Translations under genes and position numbers: made by a program
Notes under the pieces: model-generated
What the model saw: only the letters and a program-made list of their open reading frames with translations
Told to the model about the DNA's origin: nothing
Databases searched by the model: none
In this document: positions 270 through 59,082 of the stretch, in pieces
How positions within the stretch are numbered: position 1 is the stretch's first letter
Layout: each line of letters opens with the position of its first letter
NCBI GenBank assembly: GCA_965208675.1
Contig: OZ242351.1
Coordinates: forward strand, 4,544,001-4,608,000
DNA length: 64,000 nt
Direction of reading: 5' to 3'
Source of the DNA: Candidatus Poribacteria bacterium
GTDB taxonomy: Bacteria; Poribacteria; WGA-4E; PCPOR2b

Positions 270-1298
270 TTATTCTGGCCTGTAAATCCCTGTGCCTAGC
301 TGTTTAATCCAACTCCAGGTCAAGGGGCGCTTTTTGCCGGGCGATACTGCATACGGCACAACAAAGTCCGGGTCAAACCAATCCGGAGAACGGCTGCCTT
401 GCCATTCTGCGCCAAGCGGCAAGACTTTTCCATCTGCACGTACATCGTCGACAACCTTATCTGAATCCATCACGGCAATTTCCACAAACGGAGCATCTGA
501 CAGGACGAGCATTGTTCCATCGGGAGACCACGCCGGGTCAAAGTTACATCGCGGCCCAGGCGTGAGGTTTTTCACGTTTTCACCGTTGGCGTCCATGGTG
601 TGCAGATCGCCCGTCCCATTGCGCCTAGATGTCCAGACAATCTTTTGGCTGTTCGGCGACCAACGGGGATAGCTGTCATCGCCGCGGTGGTTAGTCAAAT
701 TCAAGGGGTTTTCACCACTCGCATTCATCGTGTATACGTCTGAAATAGTTCTACCCCGCTTGGAAGCGAAGGCAATCATTCGACCGTCGGATGACCAATC
801 AGGTTGCCTGTCGGGAGCAGCGTCGTTAGTCAGGTTCACCCCGACGTTCCCGTTAGCTGTCAATGTGTAGATTTCGTAATTGCCATCCCGATTGGTGGTG
901 AACACAAGCCGTTGTCCGCTAGGATGCCACGTGGGCCAACTATCCTCGGCTTCATGGTTGGTCAGTCTCTTGAGCTTCTCGCCATCGGCGTTAACCACGT
1001 AGATATCAATGTTGCCGTCCAACTTGGTATGGAACGCCACCTTTTGTCCATCTGGCGACCACCTAACCCCTAACGGCTGTTCGTCCGCTTTAAGCCGTAA
1101 ATCAATTAACGGACGAAGATTTGCACTGTCGGGGTCCATCAGCCAAAGGTCGCCTTCCGGTTGGCTGCTCGAAAACACAATGGTCGGATCCTCGGGTGCC
1201 CGCTGTGCGTCAGCGCCTGCCGCAAAAATCATGCTGCCAAAAAGGAACGTAATCACTGAAAATACAAACCGTGTTGTGAATGGTAATCTATGTTGCAT
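270..1298 (-). CDS. Secreted TolB-like (PD40 repeat) beta-propeller protein with C-terminal TWxWIK tail
   Basis: Signal peptide; repeated P.WSPDG..IAF / EIY.M..G...NLT motifs; ends VSPGKKRPLTWSWIKQLG. Confidence 0.85.
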   Translation of the reverse strand: MQHRLPFTTRFVFSVITFLFGSMIFAAGADAQRAPEDPTIVFSSSQPEGDLWLMDPDSANLRPLIDLRLKADEQPLGVRWSPDGQKVAFHTKLDGNIDIYVVNADGEKLKRLTNHEAEDSWPTWHPSGQRLVFTTNRDGNYEIYTLTANGNVGVNLTNDAAPDRQPDWSSDGRMIAFASKRGRTISDVYTMNASGENPLNLTNHRGDDSYPRWSPNSQKIVWTSRRNGTGDLHTMDANGENVKNLTPGPRCNFDPAWSPDGTMLVLSDAPFVEIAVMDSDKVVDDVRADGKVLPLGAEWQGSRSPDWFDPDFVVPYAVSPGKKRPLTWSWIKQLGTGIYRPE

Positions 1299-1342
1299 TC
1301 GTGTTATCTCCTCTCGCTGTTTCGGAGTTGCCGGTTAGAGAT

Positions 1343-1371
1343 ATTTTATAACTAACTTCTTCAAATGTCAA
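1343..1371 (-). promoter_or_regulatory. sigma70-type promoter for the 270..1298 gene
   Basis: Minus strand TTGACA-17 nt-TAAAAT. Confidence 0.55.
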
Positions 1372-1502
1372 TCGATTTAGAGCGTGATTTCGAAACCGCT
1401 CGTTAGGTAAGAGGAAGGGTATGCACGCATGACCCCGGCGTTTCGGTGCCTGCGTCAGACTGCATTAATACCACGGCCCGCGGATAATTGGTAACTCTTG
1501 CA

Positions 1503-3410: not shown

Positions 3411-3476
3411 GAACTAACCTCATTTTTGTGGATGAATTAAATCACTATGGATAAATAGCGTAGGGGCTAGGAATTT

Positions 3477-4529
3477 TCAGTCGCGCGGCCCTAAATTTTT
3501 TATCCATCCCCACGTAAGCGGGCGCTTGTCAGCAGGCTCAACATCGAATGGCGGCGCTGGAAATGCGGGGTCGAACCAAGCTGGAGACCGGGCGCGCCTG
3601 CCTTTATCTAGCACAAGAATCTGTATGAAATTTTTCGCCGCCTTGAGGTCCGCTTCGAGCGTTTCTCCAACGCCAAGCTCGTCTACTGCGTGGTAAAGGA
3701 AGATGCCTTGCGGGAATGACAGGGAGGCGATGCTTTTGCCGTCTGGAGACCATGTAGCATCCTTCTTCTCCTCGGTGCTCTTTACCCACCGCTGATTTTC
3801 GCCATCCGAATCAATGATGTAGACGTCACCCGTGCCGTCTCGCCGGGATACCCACGCCAATGTTTCACCGTCAGGCGACCACCTCGGTTGAATATCCTGG
3901 CCTTTATGATTGGTGATATTCTGCAGATTTTCGCCTTTCGAATCCATCACATAGATATCTGCAATCGTGCGGCCTCGCTTGGTCGAAAACGCAATCTTTC
4001 GACCGTCAGGCGACCAAGACGGGTCAATATCGGGCGCAGCGTCTGCTGTGAGGTTTCCGCCGACATTGCCTTGCGCCGTCATGGTGTAGATTTCAAAATT
4101 CCCGTCACGGTTGGTGGCGAACGCCAGTTTTTGACCGCTCGGATGCCACGTGGGCGAGCTGTCTTCCGCCTCATGCTCGGTAAGCCTCCGCAAATTTTTC
4201 CCGTCGGCGTTCACGGAATATACGTCAATGTTGTCCTTCAAGTTAGTATGGAAAGCCAACATTTCACCGGTTGGGGACCATACCAAGCCCGCCGGCACCG
4301 GCTCGCCGTCAATTTCTAATACCAAGAAAGGAGGGTTTACACCTGCCGGATCCATTGACCAGATGCCTACTTCGCCCGCCACACCGTCGGTGCCCACGAC
4401 TATCGTTGGCACGATTGGTGCTTGAGCCTGCCCGCTCTGGAGCGTAGCAAAACAGTTAATGAGAAGCACGCCGATGAACACGACCGGCATGAATATGTCC
4501 CGAATCTGAAGGTTTTGTCGGATTTGCAT
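3477..4529 (-). CDS. Secreted TolB-like (PD40 repeat) protein with C-terminal TWGWIK tail
   Basis: PD40 repeats, clearly paralogous to 270..1298; ends DVEPADKRPLTWGWIKNLG. Start moved to ATG 4529 (GAGGTG upstream). Confidence 0.85.
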   Translation of the reverse strand: MQIRQNLQIRDIFMPVVFIGVLLINCFATLQSGQAQAPIVPTIVVGTDGVAGEVGIWSMDPAGVNPPFLVLEIDGEPVPAGLVWSPTGEMLAFHTNLKDNIDVYSVNADGKNLRRLTEHEAEDSSPTWHPSGQKLAFATNRDGNFEIYTMTAQGNVGGNLTADAAPDIDPSWSPDGRKIAFSTKRGRTIADIYVMDSKGENLQNITNHKGQDIQPRWSPDGETLAWVSRRDGTGDVYIIDSDGENQRWVKSTEEKKDATWSPDGKSIASLSFPQGIFLYHAVDELGVGETLEADLKAAKNFIQILVLDKGRRARSPAWFDPAFPAPPFDVEPADKRPLTWGWIKNLGPRD

Positions 4530-4681
4530 GGTTATCACCTCATCGTGTTGGTTAAGGTTTATGGACAATCGCTAAGTGAATCCGGGAAGACGAATTCCTC
4601 GGCGCATTTACGCTCGGTATTGCCTGTGAAAACTCGACCGGTTTTTAGCCTGTTGAAACACGCGGTGAAGGCGGTTAAATA

Positions 4682-6371: not shown

Positions 6372-7235
6372 CTATGGTTGATTGTCGATGTCCTTTGCCA
6401 GCCTAAATCCGATAAAACTAGTTCCGACCGCCGGGTGGTGTCCCATGCGTGTAATGCACCGAGCTAACTGCGGCCCATTTGCCCATGACCCGCCCCGCAC
6501 CACGCGCCGACTGCCCACATCAGGACCCGCCGGGTTTTCGGTAGGGCTGCGATAGTAATAAGATTCAGAAAACCAATCTGCAACCCACTCCCAGACATTT
6601 CCGCCCATATCGTATACGCCGTACGGGCTTGCGCCAGTCGGAAATTTCCCGACAGGCGCCAAGACGTTGTCATATCCGTCTCGCCCATTCCACACATTTG
6701 CGTGGACATTTGCGCCGCGTATCGAAACGAAGAAGGCATTCCCCCACGGCCAAACACGTTGGTCGGTTCCCCGAGACGCTTTCTCCCACTCCGCTTCGGT
6801 GGGCAGCCGCTTATTCGCCCATTTGGCATACGCGTCCGCTGCGGCCCAAGAAATACCCACAACGGGATAGTTCGGCTTGGACTGCGCAATCTCGGGCCAA
6901 TCCCCCAGTCCAACCTCCTCGCCGTAACTGACTGGTGTGTGCTTACTGCGCTCTCCGCCATCTGCCATCCAGAAGGCAAAATACTCGGCGTTCGTGACCT
7001 CGTGTTTGTCGATGTAATAAGCGTCAAGCGAAATCTGGTGCGCCGGTTTCGCGCCGATTCCCCCGGAATCGCCGCCCATGGTAAATTCACCGCCCGGAAT
7101 CAACACCATCCCGTCGGGCGGTGTCAACGGATGCGGCGTTGCAGTTACCTCGGCGTGCCCATCGGTAATCGGGAGATGCAGGACAATCCAGAAGAAACAA
7201 AATAGATTGAGGGATAAACAACAGTTCGCTAACAT
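6372..7235 (-). CDS. Secreted FGE-sulfatase (SUMF1/EgtB/PvdO) domain protein
   Basis: IPGGEFTMG, EVTNAEY, RLPTEAEWEKA, YDMGGNVWEW, RGGSW and GFRL motifs. Confidence 0.9.
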   Translation of the reverse strand: MLANCCLSLNLFCFFWIVLHLPITDGHAEVTATPHPLTPPDGMVLIPGGEFTMGGDSGGIGAKPAHQISLDAYYIDKHEVTNAEYFAFWMADGGERSKHTPVSYGEEVGLGDWPEIAQSKPNYPVVGISWAAADAYAKWANKRLPTEAEWEKASRGTDQRVWPWGNAFFVSIRGANVHANVWNGRDGYDNVLAPVGKFPTGASPYGVYDMGGNVWEWVADWFSESYYYRSPTENPAGPDVGSRRVVRGGSWANGPQLARCITRMGHHPAVGTSFIGFRLAKDIDNQP

Positions 7236-8577: not shown

Positions 8578-9459
8578 CTATCTGCGGGTTTTTATATCCC
8601 CCCATGTTGTGGACAGTTTTTCAACCGGTGCAAAACCGAGCGCAGTCGTAACGCCAAGCCCATCATTCATGATCGCCGCGATTTCCGCCCCGCTCAATAC
8701 CCGGCTGAATACCCCGATATCGTCCACTGTAACCTGTGCGGAAGAGCCATACCTGCCGCAAATATGCCAAGGACCGTGTTCATCGGTCCGAACAAACGGT
8801 TCCGTTCCGGGACCGCGATTGACAATTTGACCATTCTGGTATATCACTGTCTCTTTGCCATTTCCCGTAAAGGCGTAGTGGTTCATCTCGGCGCCGTTTG
8901 CGGGAAACCGCCAATGATGGTCCTGGGGAGGCTTGCCGTATTGCCACATCATAAACTCGCCCTCGCCGTCATCCCACGGAAAGTGAACCAGAATTCGGTT
9001 GTCCCACGGCCCGCCGGGCTCAAATGAGAAGAGATCTTTTTGGGCAAAGCTGTCGATTTTGTCGTTTCGCTGCACCCATGCGGTTATTGAAATCTCTGTC
9101 TCGTCGGGAAGATTGCCGGCATTCGCATCGTCTTCGTCAGGCCCTAACCGCTCATCCTTGATGAAGTTTGGGACTATGATAACGCTGCCCTCGCCTTCAC
9201 ATTTCAGAGCCGTGCCGAATTTGCCGTCAACCCACGACGGCCTTAGCGCATCGCTGTCAGGACGATTACCTTGCAGTCTGCCGTCCATGTCGTGGGGGTT
9301 GCCCGACGCGTCATTGGCAGTGACTCCTTCCCCCTCATCAAATAGCCAAACGGCAATAATGTCGTCGGGGTCGAGTGCGGCATGAGTCGGGGCTGTCACC
9401 ATAATCCCAAACAATGAAACGGCGCTGACGCATACCAGCGTTTTTAGCATGAGTTTCAA
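8578..9459 (-). CDS. Secreted LamG-like jellyroll protein, paralog 1 of 3, with TTWGDIK tail
   Basis: WLFDEG.G...D.SGN...WVDGKFG.AL...ITAWV...DD.G.F.R.L pattern. Start moved to TTG 9459, which aligns with the paralog's ATG and has GGAGG upstream. Confidence 0.85.
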   Translation of the reverse strand: MKLMLKTLVCVSAVSLFGIMVTAPTHAALDPDDIIAVWLFDEGEGVTANDASGNPHDMDGRLQGNRPDSDALRPSWVDGKFGTALKCEGEGSVIIVPNFIKDERLGPDEDDANAGNLPDETEISITAWVQRNDKIDSFAQKDLFSFEPGGPWDNRILVHFPWDDGEGEFMMWQYGKPPQDHHWRFPANGAEMNHYAFTGNGKETVIYQNGQIVNRGPGTEPFVRTDEHGPWHICGRYGSSAQVTVDDIGVFSRVLSGAEIAAIMNDGLGVTTALGFAPVEKLSTTWGDIKTRR

Positions 9460-9632
9460 TTTGCATTTCCTCCATCTACAGCCGGTACGGTATAGGATGG
9501 CCGAATGCTGCCGCTGTAGAAAAACCCATCCCGTATACCTGTACGCGGCGAGTTTTTCAAATATTGAATCTACATACAACGGCGCCAGTTGCTAAACTGC
9601 AAGCAAAACACCACTCGCGCCGTTGTGGTTAT
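9460..9632 (-). repeat. Duplicated leader/upstream region, copy 1 (copy 2 at 10535..10705)
   Basis: The first 99 nt differ from copy 2 at only 5 positions. Confidence 0.9.
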
Positions 9633-9649: not shown

Positions 9650-10534
9650 CTAATTTTTGGTTTTTATCACCCCCCATGTTGTTGATATTTTTTCATCCGG
9701 TTGAACATCAAGAGCCGCCGCGGCGGCAAGCCCGTCGAGCATGATAGATGCAATTTCACCTTGGGTCAATACCCGGCTAAATACGCCGATGTCGTCCACT
9801 GTAACCTGAGCGGAAGAGCCAAACCTGCCGCAAATATGCCATGGACCGTGTTCATCGGTCCGAATAAACGGCCTCGATCCGGGACCGTGATGCACCATTT
9901 TACCATTCTGGTAAATCACTGTGGCTTCGCTATTGCCGGTAAATGCGTAGTGGTTCATCTCGCCGCCGTTTGCGGGAAACTCCCACGGATTGTCGAAGTC
10001 AGGTCTGCCGTATTGCCACATTATAAACTCGCCCTCTCCGTCATCCCACGGAAAGTGCACCAGAATCCGGTTGTCCCACGGCCCGCCGGGTTGGAACGAA
10101 AAGAGGTCTCTCTGAGCCGCCGTGCCGATTTCATCGTTGCGCTGCACCCATGCGGTTATGGTAATCTCCGTCTCGTCGGGAATATTGCCGGCAGACGCAT
10201 CGTGTTCGTGGCGTCCCAATCGCTCATCCTTGATGAAATTCGGGATGACGATAACGCTGCCCATACCTTCACATTTCAGGGCCGTGCCGAATTTTCCGTC
10301 TACCCACTTCGGTTTTTCGCCGGCGTTGTGCGCCCGCTTGGTGACTTCCAACCTACCGTCCATGTCGAGCGGGTTTCCCGAAGCGTCGTTGGCAGTGCCG
10401 CCTGCGCCCTCATCGAATAGCCAAATTGCAATGATGTCGGCGGGGTCTAGGACGGCGAAAACCGGGATTATAACGATAAACCCGAACAATGAAACAGTGG
10501 CGGCGCATGCCAGTGCCTTTAGCATAGACTTCAT
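9650..10534 (-). CDS. Secreted LamG-like jellyroll protein, paralog 2 of 3, with TTWGVIK tail
   Basis: Long blocks identical to its neighbours (PGGPWDNRILVHFPWDDG); signal peptide; GGAGG RBS. Confidence 0.88.
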   Translation of the reverse strand: MKSMLKALACAATVSLFGFIVIIPVFAVLDPADIIAIWLFDEGAGGTANDASGNPLDMDGRLEVTKRAHNAGEKPKWVDGKFGTALKCEGMGSVIVIPNFIKDERLGRHEHDASAGNIPDETEITITAWVQRNDEIGTAAQRDLFSFQPGGPWDNRILVHFPWDDGEGEFIMWQYGRPDFDNPWEFPANGGEMNHYAFTGNSEATVIYQNGKMVHHGPGSRPFIRTDEHGPWHICGRFGSSAQVTVDDIGVFSRVLTQGEIASIMLDGLAAAAALDVQPDEKISTTWGVIKTKN

Positions 10535-10705: not shown

Positions 10706-10707
10706 AA

Positions 10708-11141: not shown

Positions 11142-12023
11142 CTATTTGGGAGACGACTTAATTTCTCCCCATGTTGTCGATAATTTTTCAGCCGGTTCAA
11201 CACCGAGGGCTGCAATTGCGAGTCCTTTCTGCTGAATGGACGCGATTTCGTCATCGCTAAGAACTCGGCTGAACACCCCAACGTCATCGACTATAACTTG
11301 AGCCGAGGAACCGAACCTTCCGCCGATGTGCCAAGGACCGTGTTCGACGGTTCGAACAAACGGTTTTGCACCGGCGCCCAGATGGACAAATTCGCCATTC
11401 TGGTATATGACAGTCTCTTCACCGTTGCCGGTAAAGGCGTAGTGGTTCATTTCGCCGCCGTTCCCGGGAAATTCCCAGTTGGTGCCTTGGAACGGTTTAC
11501 CATACTGCCACATAATAAACTCGCCTGCTCCGTCATCCCAGGGGAAGTGGACCAAAATTCGGTTATCCCATGGACCGCCGGGCTCATATGAAAACAGGTC
11601 TTTTTGCGCCGCGCTGCCGAGTTTATCCAGCCGCTGCACCCAAGCCGTAATGGTAATGGTTGTTTCATCGGGAAGATTTCCGGCAGCTTCATCCTCTTCA
11701 TCAGGACCTAAACGCTCGTCCTTGTTGAAATTCGGGATATTGATTACACTGCCTGCACCTTCGCATTTCAAGGCTTTGCCGAACTTGCCGTCAACCCATT
11801 GAGGTCTCAGGTTATCGCTGTCGTTGGCGCCGCCTTCAAGCGTGCCGTCCATGCTCTTGGGGTTGTCCGACGAATCTACGGTCTTATTGCCCTCACCTTC
11901 GTCAAACAGCCAAATAGCGACAATGTCAGCGGGGTCAAGTGCCGCATTGGTTGGGACCGCAACCAATAGCCCGCTCAATGCAACAGCGCTGACAAATGCC
12001 AGTATTTTTAGCGTCGGTTTCAT
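11142..12023 (-). CDS. Secreted LamG-like jellyroll protein, paralog 3 of 3, with TTWGEIK tail
   Basis: Same family as 8578 and 9650. Start moved to MKPTL at 12023 (AAGGAGG upstream). Confidence 0.88.
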   Translation of the reverse strand: MKPTLKILAFVSAVALSGLLVAVPTNAALDPADIVAIWLFDEGEGNKTVDSSDNPKSMDGTLEGGANDSDNLRPQWVDGKFGKALKCEGAGSVINIPNFNKDERLGPDEEDEAAGNLPDETTITITAWVQRLDKLGSAAQKDLFSYEPGGPWDNRILVHFPWDDGAGEFIMWQYGKPFQGTNWEFPGNGGEMNHYAFTGNGEETVIYQNGEFVHLGAGAKPFVRTVEHGPWHIGGRFGSSAQVIVDDVGVFSRVLSDDEIASIQQKGLAIAALGVEPAEKLSTTWGEIKSSPK

Positions 12024-12263
12024 TAGCATTTCCTCCTTTTTAGTTGGCGGATTCGCCAACATTTTTGGAATGGTGTCTGGGCAATTACCGCCCAATCACC
12101 TGTTCAGGAACGCATCGGCCACCGTACCCCTTGCGGGAGCGGATTGCTATGCGCACCATTCAAATTGCACGGGGCCTTATTCTTATTAAGAAATGGAACG
12201 ACCAAAACTCCGTACATGCCCGTTTCCGGGCAAAAATACAGTAATGCTACTATATTTAGCGAT

Positions 12264-13482: not shown

Positions 13483-13682
13483 GGTTCGATTTGCTAGAAT
13501 GGTATCTCCATTCGTCGATTTGCTGCTCAGTTATTTTACCGCAAAGATCTCGGATTGCCCTGAAGCGGAATTGGAATCGGATTGACATCCTCAACACCGC
13601 GACGTTGCCGCACAGGTGCCGTATTTCAACCTCGCTTTAGGAAATCAAATCGCGGGGGTACATCTGCTACCCCTGTCCCGCT

Positions 13683-18772: not shown

Positions 18773-20206
<1,434 letters not shown>

Positions 20207-41671: not shown

Positions 41672-42481
41672 TTACCTTTGCGGCGAATTTTTTATTTCAC
41701 CCCACGTCGTGGTCAAATGCTTTTCAAGATCAACACGTCGCGGGCCAATGTTTGGAATCTGCGGACCAGTAATGGCAATGTCGTCAAGATGAACGGTCAG
41801 GTGACTTTGCGACCAAAACCTTACTGTGCCCGGGCCGGCCTTTACATCGCTATATTGCGTTACGAATTGGTCGTCGAAATAAAATTCAAATGACTCCTCA
41901 TGAGCCACGATTTTGATTGGGATCCATCGATCCCATATGGGTCGTTCGAGATTTTTCCGGCGTATTTCTGCACGGTGAACAAGGCCCATCTGTTGGGGGA
42001 ATCCTGCAGGGGGTTCAACTGGTTGGATAGTCGAGACACTTAACCTCTGGAGGCGGTCGTTGTGTATCAACATGACTTGTAAGTTTTCCAGGCGGATTGA
42101 CCGGCGGGGGTCTACTTCAACCACATCGCCCTCGCTGTATCGGACTTGAATTGAGAAAATTGACGGCGGCTCTAGATTGACGTGTGATTTAAACCTAATT
42201 CGACAGGCCAGCGTATAAGAATCCCAACGTTCCGAATTGCCCGTGTTTAATTTCAGAATTACCGAATGCCGCTGTCCATTGCGAACAGTGTTGATAACCA
42301 AATATCCATTTTCGATTGTCAAAAAATCGTTAACGGGGTGCCATGGCGGCCCCGGAGCAGTTTCAATTTGCCATTGGTCCAGGTTTCCATTGTTGAAATC
42401 TTCCCGAAACACGCCGGCGTGTGCCGCTATGACCGGTAATACCAACAATAACAATGCTATTACTACCCGCGCCGTTTTCAT
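41672..42481 (-). CDS. Secreted beta-rich hypothetical protein with TTWGEIK tail
   Basis: Signal peptide ending AHA; FREDFNNG start and HLDDIAITGP near the end; ends VDLEKHLTTTWGEIKNSPQR; GGAGG RBS. Confidence 0.75.
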   Translation of the reverse strand: MKTARVVIALLLLVLPVIAAHAGVFREDFNNGNLDQWQIETAPGPPWHPVNDFLTIENGYLVINTVRNGQRHSVILKLNTGNSERWDSYTLACRIRFKSHVNLEPPSIFSIQVRYSEGDVVEVDPRRSIRLENLQVMLIHNDRLQRLSVSTIQPVEPPAGFPQQMGLVHRAEIRRKNLERPIWDRWIPIKIVAHEESFEFYFDDQFVTQYSDVKAGPGTVRFWSQSHLTVHLDDIAITGPQIPNIGPRRVDLEKHLTTTWGEIKNSPQR

Positions 42482-46860: not shown

Positions 46861-49575
46861 TCACGCTTTGCGTTTAGCGGGTTTATGAAGGATTAACTGC
46901 GTGCTATCTTCGCGCGCCAGAATTTCGAAGAACCGTTTGGCGGCAGGATAATCTTCGGGGGAAATGACTCGATTCACGAGCGTGAACTGGAGGATATAGC
47001 GAATCTCACGCCCTTCCAACTCGTAACGTCGATCCATACTAGCAAAGCTATGCTCCACCCGGAGGTTTTCCGGGAGGATAGCTGACCATCCCTGCGGCAA
47101 GGCAATACGCACGGTCTTCTGCATTTCAAACGGATAGCTAAACTCGAGCGGATGGCTTCGTTTACTCGCCGCAAAGAGTTCAGCATAATCCGTGAACTCG
47201 CCGCTCGGCAACGGAAAGAGCAGCGTTCCGTTGATCTGCTTAACATATTCTTCGACGGCAAAATCGATTTCGACCTCAACCGGCAGGTTGAGATTGTTGA
47301 GATCGGACATTGCCACACGATTAACCACGACACCGGGAAACTGCGTGCTGAGTTCCCCCGCAAAGGTATCCTTCAAGGCGTTAGGGTGGACGGGGCTATA
47401 GTGCAAGCGGTTTTCGATGTTGTATTGACCGCTAGTTTCGACGTGCATCTTGCCGTGAAGTTCGCCATTTTCACTTAAACTGAGTTCCGTATTTACAATG
47501 AGTTTGTTGGATTCGGGGGGAAAAGTGGGAATATCAACGAATTCGCCTCTGGTTTCTCCGATTATGAAGCCTTTGCGCCCTTGATCGCTCGCAGGTAAAT
47601 CTCCGAAACTACAGACTTCCGATGTTGCGTCCAGCCAGATATAGCTGCCGCCATCTTCCGGAACTGCGGCGATGACGTGACTGAACTGGCCGAGCGACGG
47701 GATTTCATCATCAATCCGCTCATAGGGCGTCGGATTAAGCAGCACCGGAAACGCCTTCATGCCGATGATATTGAGCATGGAAATTAACAGTGTGGTTTTA
47801 TCCTTGCAATCTCCGTACCGCATTTGAAACACTTGACTCGCGGGTGACGGCTGATAGGCGCCTTGCCCCAACTCGATACCGACGTACCGAATCTGCGACG
47901 CGACCAGATGATATAGCGCCTGGATTTTTTCTGATGGTGCTGTAAGACCGGCTGTAACAGCGTGCACGGCTTTTACGATGTTGCCATCGGCATCGTACCG
48001 ATCCTTTGCGAGGTCTTTGTACCAATTGTAGACGACGTCCCACGACTTCACCGAAGAGTAGGTGAGACGCGGCACGATATCTTTTGTTGGCGGCATACCC
48101 ACTTCTTCCACAAGCCCCGGCGTTTCGCCATAGTTCCAGATGTAGGTGCTTGCTTCATCTTCATGAGCCACTTGCGGATCGAGTTGGCAATTTACGGCTT
48201 TCCACCGAAAGTGGGTATCGTTAGGGATACGCAGCGCATAGGTGGACCGTAGCGTTACGTGCGACGCTTGAAAATTGAAATCCCCCCAAAACCATGTTTC
48301 GTTTTCCGCTGTTTGTGTGCCGGTGTCTTCAAGCGTGACCTGAAATTCGATGCACACGCCGGGTTTGAGTGCGGGCATCGAGATTACTTTCCACATGGCA
48401 TCCGAATAGAGATTGTAGGAGAGCAACCCCGGCGGGGTCACATCGTTGTAAGCTTCATCGAGCGGTTCAACCACCGATCCATCCGGTAAAATTGTGCGTG
48501 CAATATTGATGGAGATGTACTGCGCCAACGGGTTGTAAGGGATAGCGATGTCATCATATTCCTGCCTGCCTCTTTCCGTCAGGATTTTGACCACTTGATG
48601 CGAAGTGTATCGGGATTTACCCGTAGGTAACACGTCATGGCTGAACTGGTTGAGCAAGAGGATTACGTCAGCGGCGGGGTAAACTGCTGCGTCCGGAGCA
48701 CCCGCGATGATTGCGTCAATGTCGGTGTGGATGAGTTCCACCGGGGGTACGTCAGTCGTCGTATAAGCAGGTGAATTAAGCTGGGATAGGGCTTGGAGCC
48801 GCGCTGGCGCGAGTAGATTGTCCGGTTCGACGCGCAGAATTTCGTAATATTGGAGTTCTGCCTCGTAGTAACGCGCTTCGTCCTCATAGATTGAAGCGAG
48901 TTGTTGGCGCGCCCACACGTCGCCGGGAAAAAGGCGAATTGACTCTCGAAACTCGGCGATGGCTTCACCGATCTCGCCCTGTTCGAGGTAAATCAACGCA
49001 AGGTAGTTATGTGTATTTTTGCTCTCTGACCGCTCAGATTTCGGGTCGATTTCCAACGCACGGCGTAGAACGGTTTCTGCCTCATCTAGGCGATGAAGTT
49101 GTTTATAAGCCAATCCTAGGTGGTTAAGCGTGTACAAATTGCGGGGGTCAAGTTTCAATGCAGCTTCATACGCTTTTGCGGCAGCTTTGTAGTTGTTAAG
49201 ATTCTCGTGGACATATCCGAGATAATTTCGCGCGATGACGTTTTTCGGGTCGAGTTTTAACAGCGTCACAAAGGCGTCGCGCGCTTTTTCGTATTCCTGA
49301 CGTTGAAAGTGGATTTCTGCAATTTTAAGCTGCGGCGCGCTCGACCTCGGTTTGATTGCCATCGCCGCGCGATAGGCTTCGATTGCGCGATCGAAGTCTC
49401 GATTTTGGAACGCCCAGTTTCCACTGTCAATCTGTTTCTGCCATTGTCGATTCCGATCGACGATTGGATCGACAATTTCCACTTCAGACGACCGGTTCCG
49501 CGAGAAAAAGGCGCATCCACCAAGCACTAGGGCAAACATGACAACAGCTACGTACTTCAACCATGGAATAATCAT
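46861..49575 (-). CDS. Lipoprotein: TPR repeats + DUF3857 + transglutaminase-like domain
   Basis: Lipobox LGGC; N-terminal TPRs; IRYVGIELG, YGDCKDK, FSHVI and WLDAT (Cys-His-Asp triad). Confidence 0.88.
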   Translation of the reverse strand: MIIPWLKYVAVVMFALVLGGCAFFSRNRSSEVEIVDPIVDRNRQWQKQIDSGNWAFQNRDFDRAIEAYRAAMAIKPRSSAPQLKIAEIHFQRQEYEKARDAFVTLLKLDPKNVIARNYLGYVHENLNNYKAAAKAYEAALKLDPRNLYTLNHLGLAYKQLHRLDEAETVLRRALEIDPKSERSESKNTHNYLALIYLEQGEIGEAIAEFRESIRLFPGDVWARQQLASIYEDEARYYEAELQYYEILRVEPDNLLAPARLQALSQLNSPAYTTTDVPPVELIHTDIDAIIAGAPDAAVYPAADVILLLNQFSHDVLPTGKSRYTSHQVVKILTERGRQEYDDIAIPYNPLAQYISINIARTILPDGSVVEPLDEAYNDVTPPGLLSYNLYSDAMWKVISMPALKPGVCIEFQVTLEDTGTQTAENETWFWGDFNFQASHVTLRSTYALRIPNDTHFRWKAVNCQLDPQVAHEDEASTYIWNYGETPGLVEEVGMPPTKDIVPRLTYSSVKSWDVVYNWYKDLAKDRYDADGNIVKAVHAVTAGLTAPSEKIQALYHLVASQIRYVGIELGQGAYQPSPASQVFQMRYGDCKDKTTLLISMLNIIGMKAFPVLLNPTPYERIDDEIPSLGQFSHVIAAVPEDGGSYIWLDATSEVCSFGDLPASDQGRKGFIIGETRGEFVDIPTFPPESNKLIVNTELSLSENGELHGKMHVETSGQYNIENRLHYSPVHPNALKDTFAGELSTQFPGVVVNRVAMSDLNNLNLPVEVEIDFAVEEYVKQINGTLLFPLPSGEFTDYAELFAASKRSHPLEFSYPFEMQKTVRIALPQGWSAILPENLRVEHSFASMDRRYELEGREIRYILQFTLVNRVISPEDYPAAKRFFEILAREDSTQLILHKPAKRKA

Positions 49576-51509
49576 TGCATTTTCCCTTCCGCTTGGACTT
49601 GTTTCTGCCTAGCTGCTTGAATCGATTCAAGCCCCTTTAGGAGCTTGGGGTTATCAGGCATTAATTCTAGCGCCTTTTGGATGGCTTCCTCCGCATTCGC
49701 ATAGTCATTGTTTCGGAAATACAACCAAGATAACGTGTTGAGGTAGCTCGCCGAGTTGGGTTGGATTTCGACCGCCTTTTGAACCAACTCGAGTGCCTCG
49801 TCGAGGCGGGAATTCTGCGCCGCATAGAGTTGCGCTAACCGTTCGTACGCCTTGTCATAGGCTGGATTCAGAGATATACACTTCTGAAACGCACCCTCCG
49901 CCGCGTCGAATTGGTTGCGTTTAATATGGATTGTGCCGAGGAAGTAGTACGTCTCAGCCATGTCGGGTTGAAGTTTTACGGCGGTGCTCAGATAGTCGGC
50001 GGCTTCATCCAGACGCTCCTGCCACAGGGCGATTAACCCTAACATGTGATGAGGTTCGGCGAGCTCCGGGTTTCGATTGATTGCCTCCCGATAGTGGTTT
50101 GCCGCCTGTTCAGGTTTATTCTGACCTAAGTAGACTCGTGCCATACCGTGGTGGACACGCGCATCATCAGGCATGAGACCAAGCAATTTTTCGTACACAG
50201 CAAGCGCATCGTGCAGGAGGGAGAGTTTAAACGAAATGGTACCGATGTTCAGCCACACTTCGCCGTTATCCGGTTCAAACTCAACGGCTCTGCGAAAGGC
50301 TGAGAGGGCGTTTTGGTAATCCACGTTGTTTTCAGATTTTTGCGCCTTGGCAAACCAAACAGACCCGAGGTCGATATATGAGGCGGCGGAATTCGGTCTT
50401 AGTTCGACGGCGCGGTTTTGGGCTTCCAGTGCATCGTCGAACCGCTCCAGCATGGTATAGATGTGGCTAAGTCCGCTGTAGGCTTCTGCGTTATTCGAAT
50501 CGTGCCAGAGCGATTTATTGAATTGCTGTATCGCTGCTTCATACTTCTTATCCTTGATGAATTTCCAACCGAGGTTTGACAATGTGACGGCTTTTCCAGT
50601 TCCTTGAGGCGCCCGCAACATGTCGACTTCGTCGGCTAGTTCTGCTTTGAGGCGCCGAAATTTTTCCATCGCCTTTTTTGCCTCGGTGTTTTTCCCTTGC
50701 CTGAAATACAGCAGTGCCAATCGGTAGTGGGTGCTAGCGAGTTGCGGATTCACGCGGATTGCATTTCGAAACGACCTTTCCGCATTTTCTTCACCCCCGA
50801 TTCGAAGACGCGCCACTCCAAGCCAGAAATGCGCCTCTGCGAGCGGAGGCCCCAGACGAATCGCCTGCTCAAAGTATTCGATAGCCGAGTCAACTAAGTT
50901 TCGCTCGAAGGCGGCGCGCCCAAGGAAGTAACTTACACCTGCTAACGATAGCGGGGTAAGTTTGTAGGTTTGGCTACCCCCCTGTAATATGGGCGTTTTT
51001 GCTAGCCGAGCATCTTGTGCGTTCAACGCTTTCATCAGCGCAAAACCCTTTTTTAATGCTTCGTCGGCTGCATCATAGTTTTGCTGCCGAAAATGAACGA
51101 CGCCTAACTGTGCATACGCTTGACCCCAATCGGGGAAGCGGCGCACGGTATTCTCGAACACTTCTCGGGATTTATCGTAGAGTTTCTGTATGAGAAATCC
51201 GCCGCCTAGACAGTAGTAGGCAACAGGATGGGTGTCATCGAGGGTTAATGCCTTCTCGAACGATTCGACGGCAAGATCGGCTGCGCCAAGCGAAAGATAC
51301 GCTAGTCCGAGATTTAAGTGCGCCTCTGCAGATGTCGGATCTTCTTCGAGAATCTTCCGATACGCTTCGACAGTTGCGACCATATCCGTGGACGAAACCA
51401 TTTGCGCACAAATTTTTCCGCACAGCGTTACCGTCAGTAATATGACTGATGTAGAAAGTATAGTTCTACAACTTGAACCATATCGGGAAGGGAATTTAAT
51501 TCGTATCAA
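49572..51509 (-). CDS. Secreted TPR-repeat protein (paralog of 1503..3410)
   Basis: TPR repeats; shares SAEAHLNLGLAYLSL, FPDW.QA.AQLG, LGPPLA, AYERLA.LY and YLNTLSWL with 1503..3410. Confidence 0.88.
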   Translation of the reverse strand: MIRIKFPSRYGSSCRTILSTSVILLTVTLCGKICAQMVSSTDMVATVEAYRKILEEDPTSAEAHLNLGLAYLSLGAADLAVESFEKALTLDDTHPVAYYCLGGGFLIQKLYDKSREVFENTVRRFPDWGQAYAQLGVVHFRQQNYDAADEALKKGFALMKALNAQDARLAKTPILQGGSQTYKLTPLSLAGVSYFLGRAAFERNLVDSAIEYFEQAIRLGPPLAEAHFWLGVARLRIGGEENAERSFRNAIRVNPQLASTHYRLALLYFRQGKNTEAKKAMEKFRRLKAELADEVDMLRAPQGTGKAVTLSNLGWKFIKDKKYEAAIQQFNKSLWHDSNNAEAYSGLSHIYTMLERFDDALEAQNRAVELRPNSAASYIDLGSVWFAKAQKSENNVDYQNALSAFRRAVEFEPDNGEVWLNIGTISFKLSLLHDALAVYEKLLGLMPDDARVHHGMARVYLGQNKPEQAANHYREAINRNPELAEPHHMLGLIALWQERLDEAADYLSTAVKLQPDMAETYYFLGTIHIKRNQFDAAEGAFQKCISLNPAYDKAYERLAQLYAAQNSRLDEALELVQKAVEIQPNSASYLNTLSWLYFRNNDYANAEEAIQKALELMPDNPKLLKGLESIQAARQKQVQAEGKMQ

Positions 51510-53605: not shown

Positions 53606-53615
53606 GGTGTGCTTT

Positions 53616-54509: not shown

Positions 54510-55289
54510 CTACAAACGACTCTTGATTGCCGCCCAAAGGGTCACCAGTGAACCTTTGGAAGCGACGGCCTGCGCGCGGGGTTCGGACTCAGACAACGCG
54601 AAGACTTCATCCCCGTCCAACACGCGTTTGTAGATGCGCACTTCGTCCAGACGCCCGACGAACCCGTTCAGTTGGAACTTGGGAATGCCTCCCAGATACA
54701 GGGCGTCGCCCTGCTCCCCAATTTTGCCAATCGCCCCCGGATTCGCTTTAACCAGCAGTCCGTCCCGGTAAAGCTTAGAACCGTTCTTCGGCGACCACGT
54801 GCCCGCGACGAAATGCCACTCACCCTGTTTTAGCGCCGGCCCTTCGCCGCTCTGCAGCCAACTGCCAGCGACTTGGACTTCCAATCTACCGTTACCTTTA
54901 AGTAGATCGAGATTGAACTGCTTACGGCGAAACACGGCGCGGTTCTCGCCGGCGAAGTCCAGTTTCTCCGGATACACCCAAAAGGAACACGTAAAACCTT
55001 CATCCTGCTTGGTAATCAGGTAACTCGCCGAATCCGTTGTTTCCGCGCCATCAGTGACCGCGTCAAAGCGGATGGCTTTGCCGAACTTTCCTTCCGCCTC
55101 GCGTTTTGCAGTGTGTAGGTCTCCGTGGTTCTCTTCTCCGCTCTTGTCGGTGATTAAGTTGCCGTTCCCTTCAAATGGATAGTATACAACTAAAGCGTCC
55201 TGGAATTTCGCCATCACGCTGGCGGACAAGAACAGAGAGACGGCGATTGCCGCAGCGAGCGCAACCCGCTTCGCAGTGTGAGCGTTCAT
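54510..55289 (-). CDS. Secreted LamG-like jellyroll protein with TLWAAIK tail
   Basis: YYPFEGNG, GKFGKAIRFD, WHFVAGTW and GRLDEVRIYKRVL; ends AVASKGSLVTLWAAIKSRL. Confidence 0.88.
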   Translation of the reverse strand: MNAHTAKRVALAAAIAVSLFLSASVMAKFQDALVVYYPFEGNGNLITDKSGEENHGDLHTAKREAEGKFGKAIRFDAVTDGAETTDSASYLITKQDEGFTCSFWVYPEKLDFAGENRAVFRRKQFNLDLLKGNGRLEVQVAGSWLQSGEGPALKQGEWHFVAGTWSPKNGSKLYRDGLLVKANPGAIGKIGEQGDALYLGGIPKFQLNGFVGRLDEVRIYKRVLDGDEVFALSESEPRAQAVASKGSLVTLWAAIKSRL

Positions 55290-55301
55290 GCTAATTCCTT
55301 A

Positions 55302-55450
55302 GAGCCTGTTTGAATATTAGGCGGCAAACCGATTCTTTGGCGTTTGAGTTGCGATAACAGTTGGAACCCCTATCGCACGGGTTTTTCTATCGCCTTCGCT
55401 AATCCCTCAGTCGATCTTTTTCAGTCGCTTAATCCCCGCCTAAGGTGCGT
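55302..55450. mobile_element. Left-hand fragment of the MITE family
   Basis: TTA then GAGCCTGTTTGAATATTAGGCGGCAAACCGATTC...TTCTATCGCCTTCGCTA; aligns with the 10708 and 53471 copies. Confidence 0.72.
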
Positions 55451-55456
55451 GGCGAT

Positions 55457-56284
55457 TTACTTGAAAGCTTTGATTTCCCCCCACGACACTGCGAGTCTCC
55501 CAGCGGGATTGACACTAAATCCTCCGGACAGGAAATTTTGCTTGACTTCCCCCGCGTTGAGCGGCCGATCATATATAGCCACTTCATCCACGGCGCCATC
55601 CATCCAGGCTCTATCTGCGAATGTGAAAATCTTTTTTCCAAAGGTGGCTCTGGTGTCCTCTCCGGTTTGGAGCGGATTTATAGTCTGGTTATCGTAGACG
55701 AGTTCGCCGTCTACATAGATTTTTAACTCCGTCTTCTTGTCGTATGTTGCTGTCACGTGGGTCCATGTGTCGGGCTCAAAACGTCTCGGGGCTACATGGT
55801 CATTGCAAATTCCCCACAAGGCAATTCCCGCGCCGTCCCACGCGGTGATACCGTACAGCTCCCCTTGACAAATTTGCGCAGATTCTCCTTCCCATCCCCA
55901 AGCAACCGGCACCTGTTTAAGAGCAAACTTGTTAAACCGCACCCACGCGCTCAAGGTGCGGGGATCGGAGCCGGTGATTTCGATTTCCTGTTTTGACTGT
56001 GCGTAATCGCCGTCTCCGTCAAACTCCACTGCACCTCCAATTCTACCTTCTACAATCTTGGGCTGGCTTTGTCCTCCTCCAAGCAGCGGCGGCGATTTGC
56101 CGCGGACGAGTTCGACATCATTGTTTCCAGCGAGGTCCGGCACGGTGTCATTATCGGCATTATCAAACGACCAGTAGTGGACGAGTCCGTTCGCGACGAT
56201 TTTTGCTTCCACGGCTTTCGCGGTCACCATCACAATGAAGACAACCGCCAGAAACGAGGTCAAATTCATTGCAGTGCGAGGCAT
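55457..56284 (-). CDS. Secreted LamG-like protein with VSWGEIK tail (paralog of 56406)
   Basis: YWSFD, EFDGDGDY, TLSAW and DEVAIYDR.L; start at 56284 after GAGGAGG. Confidence 0.88.
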   Translation of the reverse strand: MPRTAMNLTSFLAVVFIVMVTAKAVEAKIVANGLVHYWSFDNADNDTVPDLAGNNDVELVRGKSPPLLGGGQSQPKIVEGRIGGAVEFDGDGDYAQSKQEIEITGSDPRTLSAWVRFNKFALKQVPVAWGWEGESAQICQGELYGITAWDGAGIALWGICNDHVAPRRFEPDTWTHVTATYDKKTELKIYVDGELVYDNQTINPLQTGEDTRATFGKKIFTFADRAWMDGAVDEVAIYDRPLNAGEVKQNFLSGGFSVNPAGRLAVSWGEIKAFK

Positions 56285-56405
56285 AATCGTCCTCCTCATG
56301 GATTCTTAATGAAATGCTGTTTGGCACAAATCGATAAATCGTCCCCTTTGGGCACCGAAATGTTGCCGTACGGCAAACTGCACATTGCGTAGGCCTTTAT
56401 GATGA

Positions 56406-57242
56406 TTACCGTGATGCGTGTTTTATCACACCCCAGACCGCGGCGATCGTACCAGCAGTATCCACTGCTACTGCCCCAAATTCGTCTGCCATGTAGTTCT
56501 GCATGACTTCATCCGGGTTGAGCGCCCTATCATAAATGGCGACTTCATCGACAACGCCGTTTGTCCACGCTCTATCGCCGAAAGTGAAAATTTGCTTTCC
56601 CAAGGTCATCTTTGAATCGCCCGTCTGAAGCGGCGTTACATCCATTTTGTTGTAGACTTCTTCCGCGTTGACGTAGATTTTAAGGTCGGTGTCGTTCTCG
56701 TAGGTTGCTGTAACGTGCGCCCATAGGTCCTGTTCAAATCTCTCTGTGGATACATGGTCATTACAGACTCCCCACAGGGCAATCCGGGGACCGTCCCAAG
56801 CGGTGATGGCGTACAACTCGCCCTGACATATTTGTTCGGTTTCGCCTTCCCAGCCCCATCCGACCGGCACCTGTTTCTGCGAGACAAACCCGTTGAATTT
56901 AATCCAGGCGCTCAATGTCCGCGGTGCAGACCCTGTAATGGGGATGTTAGCTATGGATTCTGCATAGTCACCATCTCCATCAAACTCTACGCCCATACCG
57001 ATTTTACCCGACGTAATTTGCGGATCGCTAGGTCCGTCGCCGAACAGTTCCGGGGAATCCCCGTGCATGAGTGCAACATCGTTATTCCCAACCAGATCTG
57101 GTGCAACGCTGGCTTGAACGTCATCGAAAGACCAGTATCCGATTAACCCTTCCTTAACGACACCAGCGTTCGCAGTGCCGATAATTAGCCCGGTTGTCAA
57201 GATGGCTAGCGCAGAAACAGCCGCCAAAACTTTGTTAAACAT
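56406..57242 (-). CDS. Secreted LamG-like protein with AVWGVIK tail
   Basis: Shares KQVPV.WGWEGE..QICQGELY with 55457; start MFNKV at 57242 after AAGGAGG. Confidence 0.88.
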   Translation of the reverse strand: MFNKVLAAVSALAILTTGLIIGTANAGVVKEGLIGYWSFDDVQASVAPDLVGNNDVALMHGDSPELFGDGPSDPQITSGKIGMGVEFDGDGDYAESIANIPITGSAPRTLSAWIKFNGFVSQKQVPVGWGWEGETEQICQGELYAITAWDGPRIALWGVCNDHVSTERFEQDLWAHVTATYENDTDLKIYVNAEEVYNKMDVTPLQTGDSKMTLGKQIFTFGDRAWTNGVVDEVAIYDRALNPDEVMQNYMADEFGAVAVDTAGTIAAVWGVIKHASR

Positions 57243-57398
57243 ATTTCTTGTGCCTCCTTTATCTTCATTTGGGGTATTGTTTAATGCAGGTCTCACGCTC
57301 AACAGTTGACTAACGCTTCATTTTTTCCGGCGACGAGGTCAAGAACAGACGAGGCACTTGGTGAATCCGCGTTGAGCGTTCTATTTTAACCGATAGAT

Positions 57399-57428
57399 AA
57401 AAAAAACCCCGATCCGAAGATCGGGGTT
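57399..57428 (-). terminator. Intrinsic terminator after 57440..58243
   Basis: Minus strand AACCCCGATC-TTCG-GATCGGGGTT then a T-run; UUCG tetraloop. Confidence 0.85.
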
Positions 57429-57439
57429 AATTAAACCGT

Positions 57440-58243
57440 CTACTTTGTAGACTTTATGTGTGCCCATGTACTTGCGAGTTTTCCAACGGGCTCAACCGCG
57501 ACGGTCGCCGCGAAGTTTTGTACAACTTCGTCGGCGCTAAGTGCGCGGTTGTAAAGTCCGACATCGTCAATTAAGCCCTCAAAGAACTCACCCGGGTCAC
57601 CGGGTTCATGACCATGAAGGTCTACATGGGGACCGGGATTGATGCCGGGATTGCTTCCAATGGCTCCAGCATTGGTACCGACCACCTTCATCGCTTCAGG
57701 AAGAACATGCTCAGCGACCATTTCTCCGTTCAGGTAGATGGTATTGTTCTGACTGCCGTTGTAAACAGCAACAACGTGGTGCCAGTCACCAAGAGACACG
57801 ACAGGTCCATAAGTATCAGACCCGGCGCCCCATTGGGTCATGAAGACCTGATCGCCATTACGAGTCCCGATACCGAAGAATATACCGCAGCACTGCGGCA
57901 CACCGAATGTAGCGATATACTGAACCCCGCCTGCGTCAGATACCTCTCGTTTAAACCAAGCCGACCATGTCATTGGCGAATTGCCTGTTGGCACGCCGTT
58001 TGTCGGAAATGTAACATTATCACCATCTTTATCGAACTTTAGGGCATCACCGATTTTGCCGGCGACGACTTCCGGATCTCCGTTAATGGTTCCGTCGTTA
58101 TCTCCAACTTGGTCTGAGACATCCCCGCCATCGAAGGACCAGTAGCTAACGAGACCATCTTGGACGACTTGTGCTTCTGAAATACAAGCGAATGCAACAA
58201 ATCCAGCGATGACAAAGAACAGCATGATGCTCTTGTTTAACAT
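57440..58243 (-). CDS. Secreted LamG-like protein with STWAHIK tail (paralog of 58318)
   Basis: YWSFD, GKIGDALKFD, WHHVVAVY and GLIDDVGLYNRAL; start MLNKS at 58243 after AGGAGG. Confidence 0.88.
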   Translation of the reverse strand: MLNKSIMLFFVIAGFVAFACISEAQVVQDGLVSYWSFDGGDVSDQVGDNDGTINGDPEVVAGKIGDALKFDKDGDNVTFPTNGVPTGNSPMTWSAWFKREVSDAGGVQYIATFGVPQCCGIFFGIGTRNGDQVFMTQWGAGSDTYGPVVSLGDWHHVVAVYNGSQNNTIYLNGEMVAEHVLPEAMKVVGTNAGAIGSNPGINPGPHVDLHGHEPGDPGEFFEGLIDDVGLYNRALSADEVVQNFAATVAVEPVGKLASTWAHIKSTK

Positions 58244-58317
58244 TGAAAAAAGCCTCCTGTTTAGTGAGTTATGCATTGGCTTCGGACGGTAGTGAGTCAT
58301 CCGAAGGTTGGTTACAG

Positions 58318-59082
58318 CTATTTTTTATCCTTGATGTTCCCCCATGTAGTCGTTATTTTATCAGCCGGGTTTACAGCAAAAATTAGTTTCGCCTCATAAT
58401 TCTGCAGGACTTCATCCGCATTCAACGCACGGTCATAAAGCCCGACTTCATCAATGAAACCCTCAAAATTTTCGCCTCCCTCCGAATTGCTGCCGATGGC
58501 TCCCTTTCTATCATTTACGGCGTTTGGCTCTTCAGCTAGCGCCATTTCTTTCACCAATTCCCCGTTTAGATAGAGGATATCATTCTGATCGCCATCATAG
58601 ATTGCAGCAATATAGTGCCATTTGTCGAATGAAATAACAGGGCCAAAAACGTCAAAGTGGGCACCCCATTGGGTCATGAAAAGTTGCTCGTTATTCCGAG
58701 TCCCGATTCCAAAGAATTGACCGCAACAACCCGCAATGCCAAACGCCGCAATATATTGAACGGAGTTGTTGTCGCCGGTCTCTCGCATAAACCAAGCCGA
58801 CCAGGTCATGGCAGAATTACCTGTTGGGAAACCTTCATTGTCGAAAGAGACACTGTCTATTTGCCCGCTGAACTCCAGTGCCATACCGTGTTTACCCTCG
58901 ACCAGCTTTGGCTTGCCGATAACTTTTCCGTCATTCGGGCCAACCGCATCTTCGACATCAAGGTTGTCCAGATGCCAGTAGCTAACAAGCCCGTCTTCGA
59001 CGATTTGAGCTGCCGCTGTATGGCAAACAACCACAGCGACACTCATCACAATGAAAATTATAGCGATGTTTTTGTTAAACAT
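58318..59082 (-). CDS. Secreted LamG-like protein with TTWGNIK tail
   Basis: Shares PTGNS.MTWSAWF, CCG.FFGIGTRN and FMTQWGA with 57440; start MFNKN at 59082 after AGGAGG. Confidence 0.88.
   Translation of the reverse strand: MFNKNIAIIFIVMSVAVVVCHTAAAQIVEDGLVSYWHLDNLDVEDAVGPNDGKVIGKPKLVEGKHGMALEFSGQIDSVSFDNEGFPTGNSAMTWSAWFMRETGDNNSVQYIAAFGIAGCCGQFFGIGTRNNEQLFMTQWGAHFDVFGPVISFDKWHYIAAIYDGDQNDILYLNGELVKEMALAEEPNAVNDRKGAIGSNSEGGENFEGFIDEVGLYDRALNADEVLQNYEAKLIFAVNPADKITTTWGNIKDKK

Follow-up and report, generated by a model that had tools for sequence, protein, structure and literature searches.

What does a short peptide contribute when it is shared by the C-termini of otherwise dissimilar exported proteins, and which machinery might read it? 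The question is raised by a 64,000 nt stretch of the genome of a Candidatus Poribacteria bacterium (GenBank assembly GCA_965208675.1, contig OZ242351.1, positions 4,544,001 to 4,608,000 of the forward strand). In this stretch, referred to as the window, eleven open reading frames (ORFs), all on the minus strand, end in one conserved tail (the tag), which in 11/11 follows the consensus [AS]-V-x-P-x-x-K-L-x-T-T-W-[GA]-x-[IL]-K plus 3–10 residues. The tag is a portable module of ~20 residues at the C-terminal end of Sec-exported binding proteins, it is a trait of the phylum Candidatus Poribacteria, and selection acts on it at the peptide level. The most likely reading makes it a sorting or anchoring tag, a kind of short, domain-independent C-terminal sorting signal.

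Alignment of the eleven window tails shows W, I and K to be invariant, and V to be present in 10/11. The translations all begin with a hydrophobic, signal-like N-terminus (11/11), and none of the other ORFs in the window bears the tail. An initial annotation of this DNA had claimed that eleven proteins share a C-terminal tail with an invariant W-x-x-I-K, that all of them carry an N-terminal signal, and that the tail is found on no cytoplasmic protein of the window; tail by tail, these statements are borne out. Its count of three unrelated folds is too generous for the window. The carriers are two PD40 (TolB-like) propellers, eight Laminin_G_3 (LamG) proteins and one protein with a weak match to 3keto-disac_hyd/DUF1080, and since we take this last family to be concanavalin-like, as is LamG, the window shows two fold classes.

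The extent of the tag was determined across the genome (4.89 Mb in a single contig, 96.4% complete). A profile built from the tails by their coordinates, and iterated once, was searched without regard to position against 29,359 six-frame, stop-to-stop ORFs of at least 60 aa. At an independent E-value (iE) of ≤0.01 there are 127 matches. In 125 of these the distance to the stop codon is at most 12 residues, in the other two it is 15 and 20, and there are no deeper matches. A regular expression for the tail matches 135 of 4,425 real C-termini (ORFs of at least 150 aa), compared with 5 of 22,125 randomly placed internal pseudo-termini, and the union of profile and regular expression comes to 141 ORFs. 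Among the 123 profile matches of at least 150 aa, W is present in 123, V in 122, G/A in 118, the first K in 106, L/I in 103 and P in 98; the last K is present in 121 and is R in the remaining two. The extension that follows this terminal Lys is Arg-rich and 1–10 residues long in 121/123 (15 and 20 in the other two), three residues being the commonest length.

The carriers are exported and diverse. A signal-like N-terminus, as scored by a permissive hydrophobic-stretch heuristic, is found in 120/123 carriers compared with 1,079 of 2,454 long control ORFs (44%). Clustering of the 127 matches after removal of their tails gives 74 LamG proteins, 36 PD40 propellers (327–664 aa) and one family of five that includes a Big_5 Ig-like protein; the remainder are two pairs (Cohesin and DUF1080) and eight singletons, which include DUF1080, HmuY, DUF3108-like and no-Pfam proteins as well as three fragments of ~70 aa, apparently gene remnants. 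A GHL15-like tag protein is picked up by the regular expression only. In all, the tag is carried by at least seven unrelated Pfam families. The C-terminal position of the tail, its co-occurrence with signal peptides and its independence of the preceding domain, as put forward in the initial annotation, hold at the scale of the genome, where the domain diversity is real (Big_5, Cohesin, HmuY and DUF3108-like, with GHL15 by regular expression only). Tag genes are often in tandem, with 92/123 having another tag gene within 3 kb. Two ORFs of ~70 aa (genome positions 1384269–1384481 and 1660360–1660572) consist of little besides the tag and look like remnants of decayed tag genes. The two full-length genes in which the tag lies 15 and 20 residues from the stop (1337591–1338439 and 988338–989261) may have lost their usual stop codon.

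The conserved positions of the tag use all synonymous codons (Lys AAA 63 and AAG 58; four codons each for Val, Pro, Thr and Gly), so it is the peptide that is constrained, and neither a DNA or RNA element nor recent gene conversion is the cause. The proteins themselves are far less conserved than their ends. In an alignment of 47 LamG relatives with a mean column identity of ~26%, all three invariant columns and seven of the eleven nearly invariant ones fall in the tail. An AlphaFold2 model of the mature protein of ORF 58318, made with these 47 relatives aligned and with LamG as the sole carrier type modelled, shows a LamG sandwich (mean predicted local distance difference test score, pLDDT, 86.9; most blocks 87–97) and a short helix at residues 198–206. 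The last 20 residues have a pLDDT of ~50 and no secondary structure. In this one LamG carrier the tail is not packed into the fold as an integral strand, the arrangement that the initial annotation had named as speaking against its proposal, and the model predicts the tail to be intrinsically disordered and outside the LamG fold.

A profile of the eleven window tails finds matches in 31/31 related genomes (14–149 each at E ≤ 0.01, with at most 150 candidates scored per genome), and at E ≤ 1e-5 in 61/61 genomes sampled from the phylum (2–57 each), among them members of other families, orders and classes. At E ≤ 1e-9, a threshold judged too strict, 37/121 genomes of the phylum were matched. A 10-residue tail pattern compared with one genome per species of 185,579 prokaryote species gave 268 matches, of which 200 were confirmed by tblastn; among the best 80 of these 200, 76 are titled Candidatus or uncultured Poribacteria and four 'uncultured bacterium'. 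The initial annotation had mentioned similar tails in Poribacteria-type genomes, and the profile scan of this genome and its relatives agrees with this.

In public records the tag proteins are labelled 'hypothetical protein' where they are named at all, and none of the papers listed in searches on Poribacteria and on the motif, judged by title and abstract, describes the tag. The tails of the eleven window proteins are not covered by any match to Pfam (E ≤ 0.01) or NCBIfam (E ≤ 1), in keeping with the earlier view that it is not a known sorting signal; in this sense the tag is undescribed. Further homologue searches added little. A full-protein search for longer forms gave seven matches, only distant LamG/DUF2341 proteins, and one limited to the tail region gave five close orthologues from 25 candidates. 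The best score of a tail-only search of a protein atlas was 0.87, below a meaningful level, and a PD40 tag protein used as query returned 180,712 matches, the best 150 of which were all repeat-driven and uninformative on forms in which the tag is combined with a type IX secretion system (T9SS) C-terminal domain (CTD).

Known signals can be compared with the tag through homologues of its carriers. Among 40 database homologues of the LamG protein of ORF 58318 (145–464 aa), 37 end in the tag and none has a CTD; given these lengths, a form with an added CTD would have shown. Among the three most distant homologues are two (P0200 and P0201) in which PEP-CTERM takes the exact place of the tag (TIGR02595, 21 and 26 bits, cut-off 16); no other homologue without the tail shows a C-terminal signal. 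One and the same passenger family can thus end in either the tag or an established sorting signal. Since NCBIfam detects the 24-position PEP-CTERM on these two proteins, its silence on the tag is meaningful. Like PEP-CTERM, the tag is short, C-terminal and domain-independent, and is found on exported proteins, but it has neither a transmembrane helix nor an obligatory basic cluster after the motif. Identity with the PEP-CTERM/exosortase system was rejected: TIGR02595 does not match the eleven proteins (E ≤ 1), the extension of 1–10 residues is too short for a helix, and exosortase (PF09721) has no match in the genome, a control genome being positive.

The signals of LPXTG/sortase and GlyGly-CTERM/rhombosortase systems likewise combine a short conserved motif near the C-terminus with a dispensable tail, and cleavage followed by attachment is the role proposed for the tag. 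Their architecture is tripartite (motif, helix and charge), whereas the tag has no hydrophobic helix; both were rejected as identities, there being no hydrophobic stretch after the motif and no NCBIfam match. An outer-membrane-protein beta-signal, in which a beta-barrel protein ends in an aromatic residue, was set aside because the tails end in variable polar or basic residues and the carriers are soluble LamG and propeller domains. An encapsulin cargo-loading peptide, presumably similar in kind but borne by cytoplasmic cargo, was rejected because 120/123 carriers are signal-like and PF04454 finds no shell protein in the genome, three control genomes being positive. Type I dockerins, which dock cellulosomal proteins to cohesins, likewise recur at the C-terminus of many unrelated exported proteins and presumably tether them to a shared scaffold, and cohesin domains are present in two tag carriers. 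Dockerins are folded, Ca-binding domains of ~70 residues, in contrast to the tag, a linear motif of ~20 residues.

Another known system close to the tag is the T9SS type-A CTD (TIGR04183 / PF18962, FlgD_ig-like) with its PorU/PorV attachment complex; this CTD is also C-terminal on Sec-exported, otherwise unrelated proteins. The tag is not itself such a domain. None of the eleven window proteins matches TIGR04183, PF18962, PF13860 or PF13585, whereas 6/6 tested CTD proteins of the genome match, and a folded CTD is a beta-sandwich of 70–100 residues, in contrast to the ~20 residues of the tail with their pLDDT of ~50 and lack of secondary structure. The initial annotation had set the two apart, correctly in that the tag is much shorter and disordered. 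The separation fails at one point, in that the same motif forms the junction before type-A CTDs in WD40 cargo.

Two weak internal matches of the tail profile pointed to proteins with the type-A CTD signature immediately after a tail-like motif. This CTD is found on 49 ORFs of the genome, with its signature 83–84 residues from the stop, and there is one further, truncated copy. The TIGR04183 match begins right after the motif in 6/6 CTD proteins tested, as does the PF18962 match in four listed cases. With a tail-only profile, 19 of the 49 segments preceding a CTD score at least 3 bits, compared with 6 of 960 control segments taken from the same CTD proteins, and at 5 bits or more the figures are 15/49 and 1/960. 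Two of the motif-bearing CTD proteins (L001 and L002) were scanned in full and proved to be WD40-repeat proteins; the others, as judged from their aligned C-termini, share the repeat ending. In an AlphaFold2 model of the last 130 residues of a WD40 protein with tag and CTD, the CTD sandwich has a pLDDT above 90 and the motif is a disordered linker.

The arrangement is found beyond this genome. In a distant poribacterial class, a WD40 protein (L169) has a Trp-containing tag abutting the CTD (10.9 bits), and in an LVIVD-propeller protein (L194) a spacer of 14 residues separates a tag-like motif (7.0 bits) from the CTD. The spacer between motif and CTD ranges from 0 to 17 residues, and the motif is the linker between passenger and CTD in WD40 and other propeller cargo. 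The tag is therefore a separate module, which ends the passenger in both contexts: what comes next is either a few residues and a stop or the CTD.

The two forms also meet on the chromosome. Directly upstream of the window (genome positions 4526978–4542579) are five tandem WD40 genes with junction motif and CTD, and 867 bp past them are two PD40 tag-only genes, which continue into the first two PD40 tag genes of the window; both forms of the motif thus lie in one same-strand block. Of 15 arrays of genes with tag and CTD, four have a tag-only gene on their own strand no more than 500 bp away (background 7.7%), a proximity that is suggestive only.

A tag linked to T9SS cargo raises the matter of the machinery. 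Passages of Kamke et al. (2014; PMC3909097) describe poribacterial WD40 proteins bearing TIGR04183 and state that Por structural genes were not found in single-cell genomes. The PorU-, PorV/Q- and SprA-like genes of the present genome contrast with that 2014 non-finding, as worded in those passages. When translocon and attachment genes (SprA/Sov, PorV and PorU) were sought, all three had counterparts outside the window, the SprA-like one below its cut-off. Two giant PorU-like C25 sortases of 2,091 and 2,116 aa (genome positions 4188812–4195084, plus strand, and 3854389–3860736, minus strand) combine Propeptide_C25, Peptidase_C25 and a CTD of their own, and score 427.4 and 374.9 bits, respectively, with the PorU model NF033707 (cut-off 420). 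Among proteins of solved structure, PorU (6za2, E 1e-20) is the best match and gingipain R the next, and the catalytic His and Cys motifs are conserved. Two PorV/PorQ family barrels (179307–180239 and 4419762–4420853) score 231.9 and 199.8 bits (cut-off 90), an SprA-like protein of 2,178 aa (3218110–3224643, minus strand) scores 160 bits (cut-off 200), and PorP/SprF has one match (26.8 bits, cut-off 22.3). Beside the SprA-like gene, two ORFs (L117:11932–13602 and 13645–15210) have N-termini like extracytoplasmic function (ECF) sigma factors, fused to WD40 and leucine-rich repeats, respectively.

The C25 giants are present in 61/61 sampled genomes of the phylum, with one to five in each. Across these 61 genomes their copy number shows no pattern with the number of tags, because every genome has both. 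A complex prediction for the PorU-like C25 domain (26-row alignment) with the last 40 residues of a LamG tag protein gave a score of 0.00 and no verdict either way. The uncharacterised surface-display system of the initial annotation stands in so far as the tag is portable, C-terminal and carried by exported proteins. The novelty it implied is less secure: given the junction motif before CTDs and the PorU-, PorV- and SprA-like genes, the system may be an offshoot of a known one, the T9SS.

The explanation we favour, with somewhat less than even confidence, is that the tag serves to sort or anchor the passenger from its C-terminal end, where it would act together with T9SS-like attachment machinery, namely the giant PorU-like C25 sortases, the PorV/PorQ-family barrels and the SprA-like pore. 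Removal of the CTD would expose the tag near the new C-terminus of CTD-bearing cargo, and tag-only proteins would be born in that state. Gingipains offer a precedent for the enzymology, Kgp cleaving after Lys and RgpB after Arg. The tag resembles a substrate of this C25 family in ending in a basic residue (K in 121 and R in two of 123) with a variable extension, and the candidate enzyme keeps its His and Cys. Because the Lys is all but invariant, the extension is variable and the candidate belongs to a family that cleaves after Lys or Arg, the most specific version of the proposal takes the Lys as the P1 site of the C25 sortase and the extension as the leaving group. Cleavage would leave the protein fixed to the cell envelope, by attachment or by docking. 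Rather unlikely, in our estimate, is the stronger form in which the tag is a minimal substrate signal independent of any CTD, and a paralogous C25 giant cleaves after the Lys and transfers more than 100 lectin-like and propeller proteins per cell to an envelope glycolipid. If this were true, sortase-like display would need only ~20 residues, implying an as yet unknown route to the cell surface.

Several observations weigh against a sorting or anchoring signal served by T9SS-like machinery. In the T9SS a CTD is required for passage through SprA, so that tag-only proteins should not reach a surface-exposed PorU. PorU of P. gingivalis is not known to require Lys or Arg at P1, and the S1 pocket assigned to the C25 giants is putative, resting as it does on a gapped alignment. 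Proteins of this genome with both tag and CTD have Leu where the tag-only proteins have the invariant Trp, and the two forms may be functionally non-equivalent. By regular expression, 29/49 CTD proteins lack the motif and have unrelated linkers, and the motif is therefore not a general requirement of CTD cargo; it could be inherited within the WD40 family. The enrichment of tag-only genes beside the arrays with tag and CTD is modest. Models for GldM and GldL find no match in the genome, control genomes are equally silent (only a sub-cut-off GldM_1st match, in Caulobacter), and absence is therefore not demonstrated.

The same observations can be read in other ways. The tag may be a dockerin-like docking peptide, held without a covalent bond, in which case the extended peptide would bind one common envelope receptor (a WD40/TPR scaffold or a PorV/Q-type barrel) and many small lectin-like heads would sit on a shared anchor without cleavage and without PorU. 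We regard this as possible, if doubtful. It accords with the disorder of the tag in both contexts, tag-only and before a CTD, and with the carriers being small single-domain binders, the two cohesin proteins among them. An extension of 1–10 and a spacer of 0–17 residues also suit a recognition epitope better than a fixed cleavage geometry, tag-only genes adjoin WD40 genes with tag and CTD, and TPR genes are weakly enriched near tail genes (9/32 within 5 kb, against a 13% background). However, the survey of neighbouring genes turned up no strongly co-located partner, and docking leaves unexplained why the motif is tied to the exact C-terminus and has no internal copies. Homology of the tag to a segment abutting the CTD also bears on a different idea, that the tag is an autonomous minimal export signal, itself read by the SprA/PorV translocon or by another outer-membrane route in place of a CTD of 70–100 residues. 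Tag-only proteins, at ~125–141 compared with 49 CTD proteins, would then be the major cargo class, and with two PorV/Q and two to five C25 paralogues in a genome, two classes of substrate could be served. This is unlikely, as the motif lies outside the CTD fold in the model, known T9SS signals need a folded CTD, and cargo with a CTD would need no second export signal.

A further alternative is a tag for periplasmic maturation or turnover, since the strictly C-terminal position, conserved core and short variable extension are as in substrates of C-terminal processing peptidases. On this account a periplasmic protease of the Prc/CtpA type would trim or degrade the exported carriers (120/123 signal-like), and the tag would control stability and not location. 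We consider it improbable, since it explains neither the internal motif before CTDs nor the replacement of the tag by PEP-CTERM in homologues; no link to an S41 protease was seen, though none was searched for. Least probable is that the tag has no function of its own and is an inherited linker or structural end-piece spread by tandem duplication and gene conversion. The crowding of tag genes (92/123 within 3 kb of another) and the concentration of 110/127 matches in just two paralogue families are what such spread would produce. It does not account for a tag on at least seven unrelated Pfam families, conserved across the phylum, with randomised synonymous sites, which is the best-conserved part of proteins otherwise ~26% identical and stays clear of the LamG fold in the model.

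The eleven tag genes of the window, all on the minus strand, begin with two PD40 (TolB-like) beta-propellers, both with tail profile matches. The first, at 270..1298 (PF07676, E 3.3e-40), has its 15-residue motif at ~303–347, followed by an extension of 10 residues. The second, at 3477..4568 (PD40, E 1e-37), has the motif at ~3498–3542 and an extension of six, and its true start is probably an ATG 13 codons inside the listed ORF. Three LamG genes follow. That at 8578..9579 (PF13385, E 2.2e-12; motif ~8590–8634) and that at 9650..10534 (E 8.6e-13; motif ~9662–9706) match the tail profile and have extensions of three residues, the former probably starting near 9450. The third, at 11142..12095 (E 2.4e-13; motif ~11157–11201, extension of four), is the top tail-profile match of the genome, with 48.3 bits. 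The DUF1080/3-keto-disaccharide-hydrolase-like beta-sandwich protein at 41672..42481 has its motif at ~41690–41734 and an extension of five residues; its PF06439 match is weak and below cut-off (E 0.0052), and its tail matches the profile with E 5.3e-10.

The remaining five genes form a second LamG array. The protein at 54510..55289 (PF13385, E 1.1e-21; motif ~54522–54566) has a divergent tag, without Pro and with Ala for Gly, that matches the tail profile, as do the tags at 55457..56299 (E 3e-20; motif ~55469–55513) and 57440..58300 (E 1.8e-23; motif ~57452–57496). Also divergent is the tag at 56406..57302 (E 3.1e-19; motif ~56421–56465), which passes the regular expression and the eleven-tail profile and misses the iE ≤ 0.01 threshold of the iterated profile. 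The last gene, at 58318..59115 (E 1.2e-22; motif ~58330–58374), begins at 59082 in public gene calls, giving 254 aa, and a database entry of the same length (P0163) is 99% identical.

The surroundings of the tag genes were also surveyed. Within 5 kb, FG-GAP/ASPIC (4/16) and FGE-sulfatase (3/15) genes were compared with the same 13% background as the TPR genes, and across the genome all three kinds are weakly associated with tag genes, with at most mild enrichment. In the window, an FGE-sulfatase (SUMF1-like) gene flanks each LamG tag array (6372–7235 and 59464–60468, both on the minus strand). GldK/PorK is the best NCBIfam match of these two proteins, but they were rejected as such, as they score 134 and 153 bits against a cut-off of 350 and the likeness is only through the generic FGE domain. 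Next to the second LamG array and an FG-GAP/ASPIC gene are a gene for a TPR, DUF3857 and transglutaminase-core protein of 904 aa (46861–49575, minus strand) and one for an all-TPR protein of 645 aa (49572–51509, minus strand); the two overlap by 4 bp, so they are probably co-translated. Further away, an 897 aa protein (43281–45974, plus strand) joins a CotH kinase domain to ~12 ankyrin repeats in a eukaryote-like architecture, and its NCBIfam matches to Legionella ankyrin effectors are repeat-driven and far below cut-offs. The F-type ATP synthase operon contains a 268 aa ORF without a Pfam or NCBIfam match (20390–21196, minus strand), situated between the gamma (21801–22667) and beta (18773–20182) genes and with a gap of 600 bp upstream.

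Poribacteria are among the most abundant uncultured symbionts of sponges, and their many 'eukaryote-like' and lectin-like exported proteins are proposed mediators of host contact. The one tag is shared by about 3% of the long ORFs of this genome (135/4,425), so that it defines the main exported, and probably surface-displayed, protein set of the phylum and provides a simple sequence rule for finding this set in metagenomes. If the tag is a substrate signal of a C25 sortase, it would be the shortest known signal linked to the T9SS and a compact handle for surface display.

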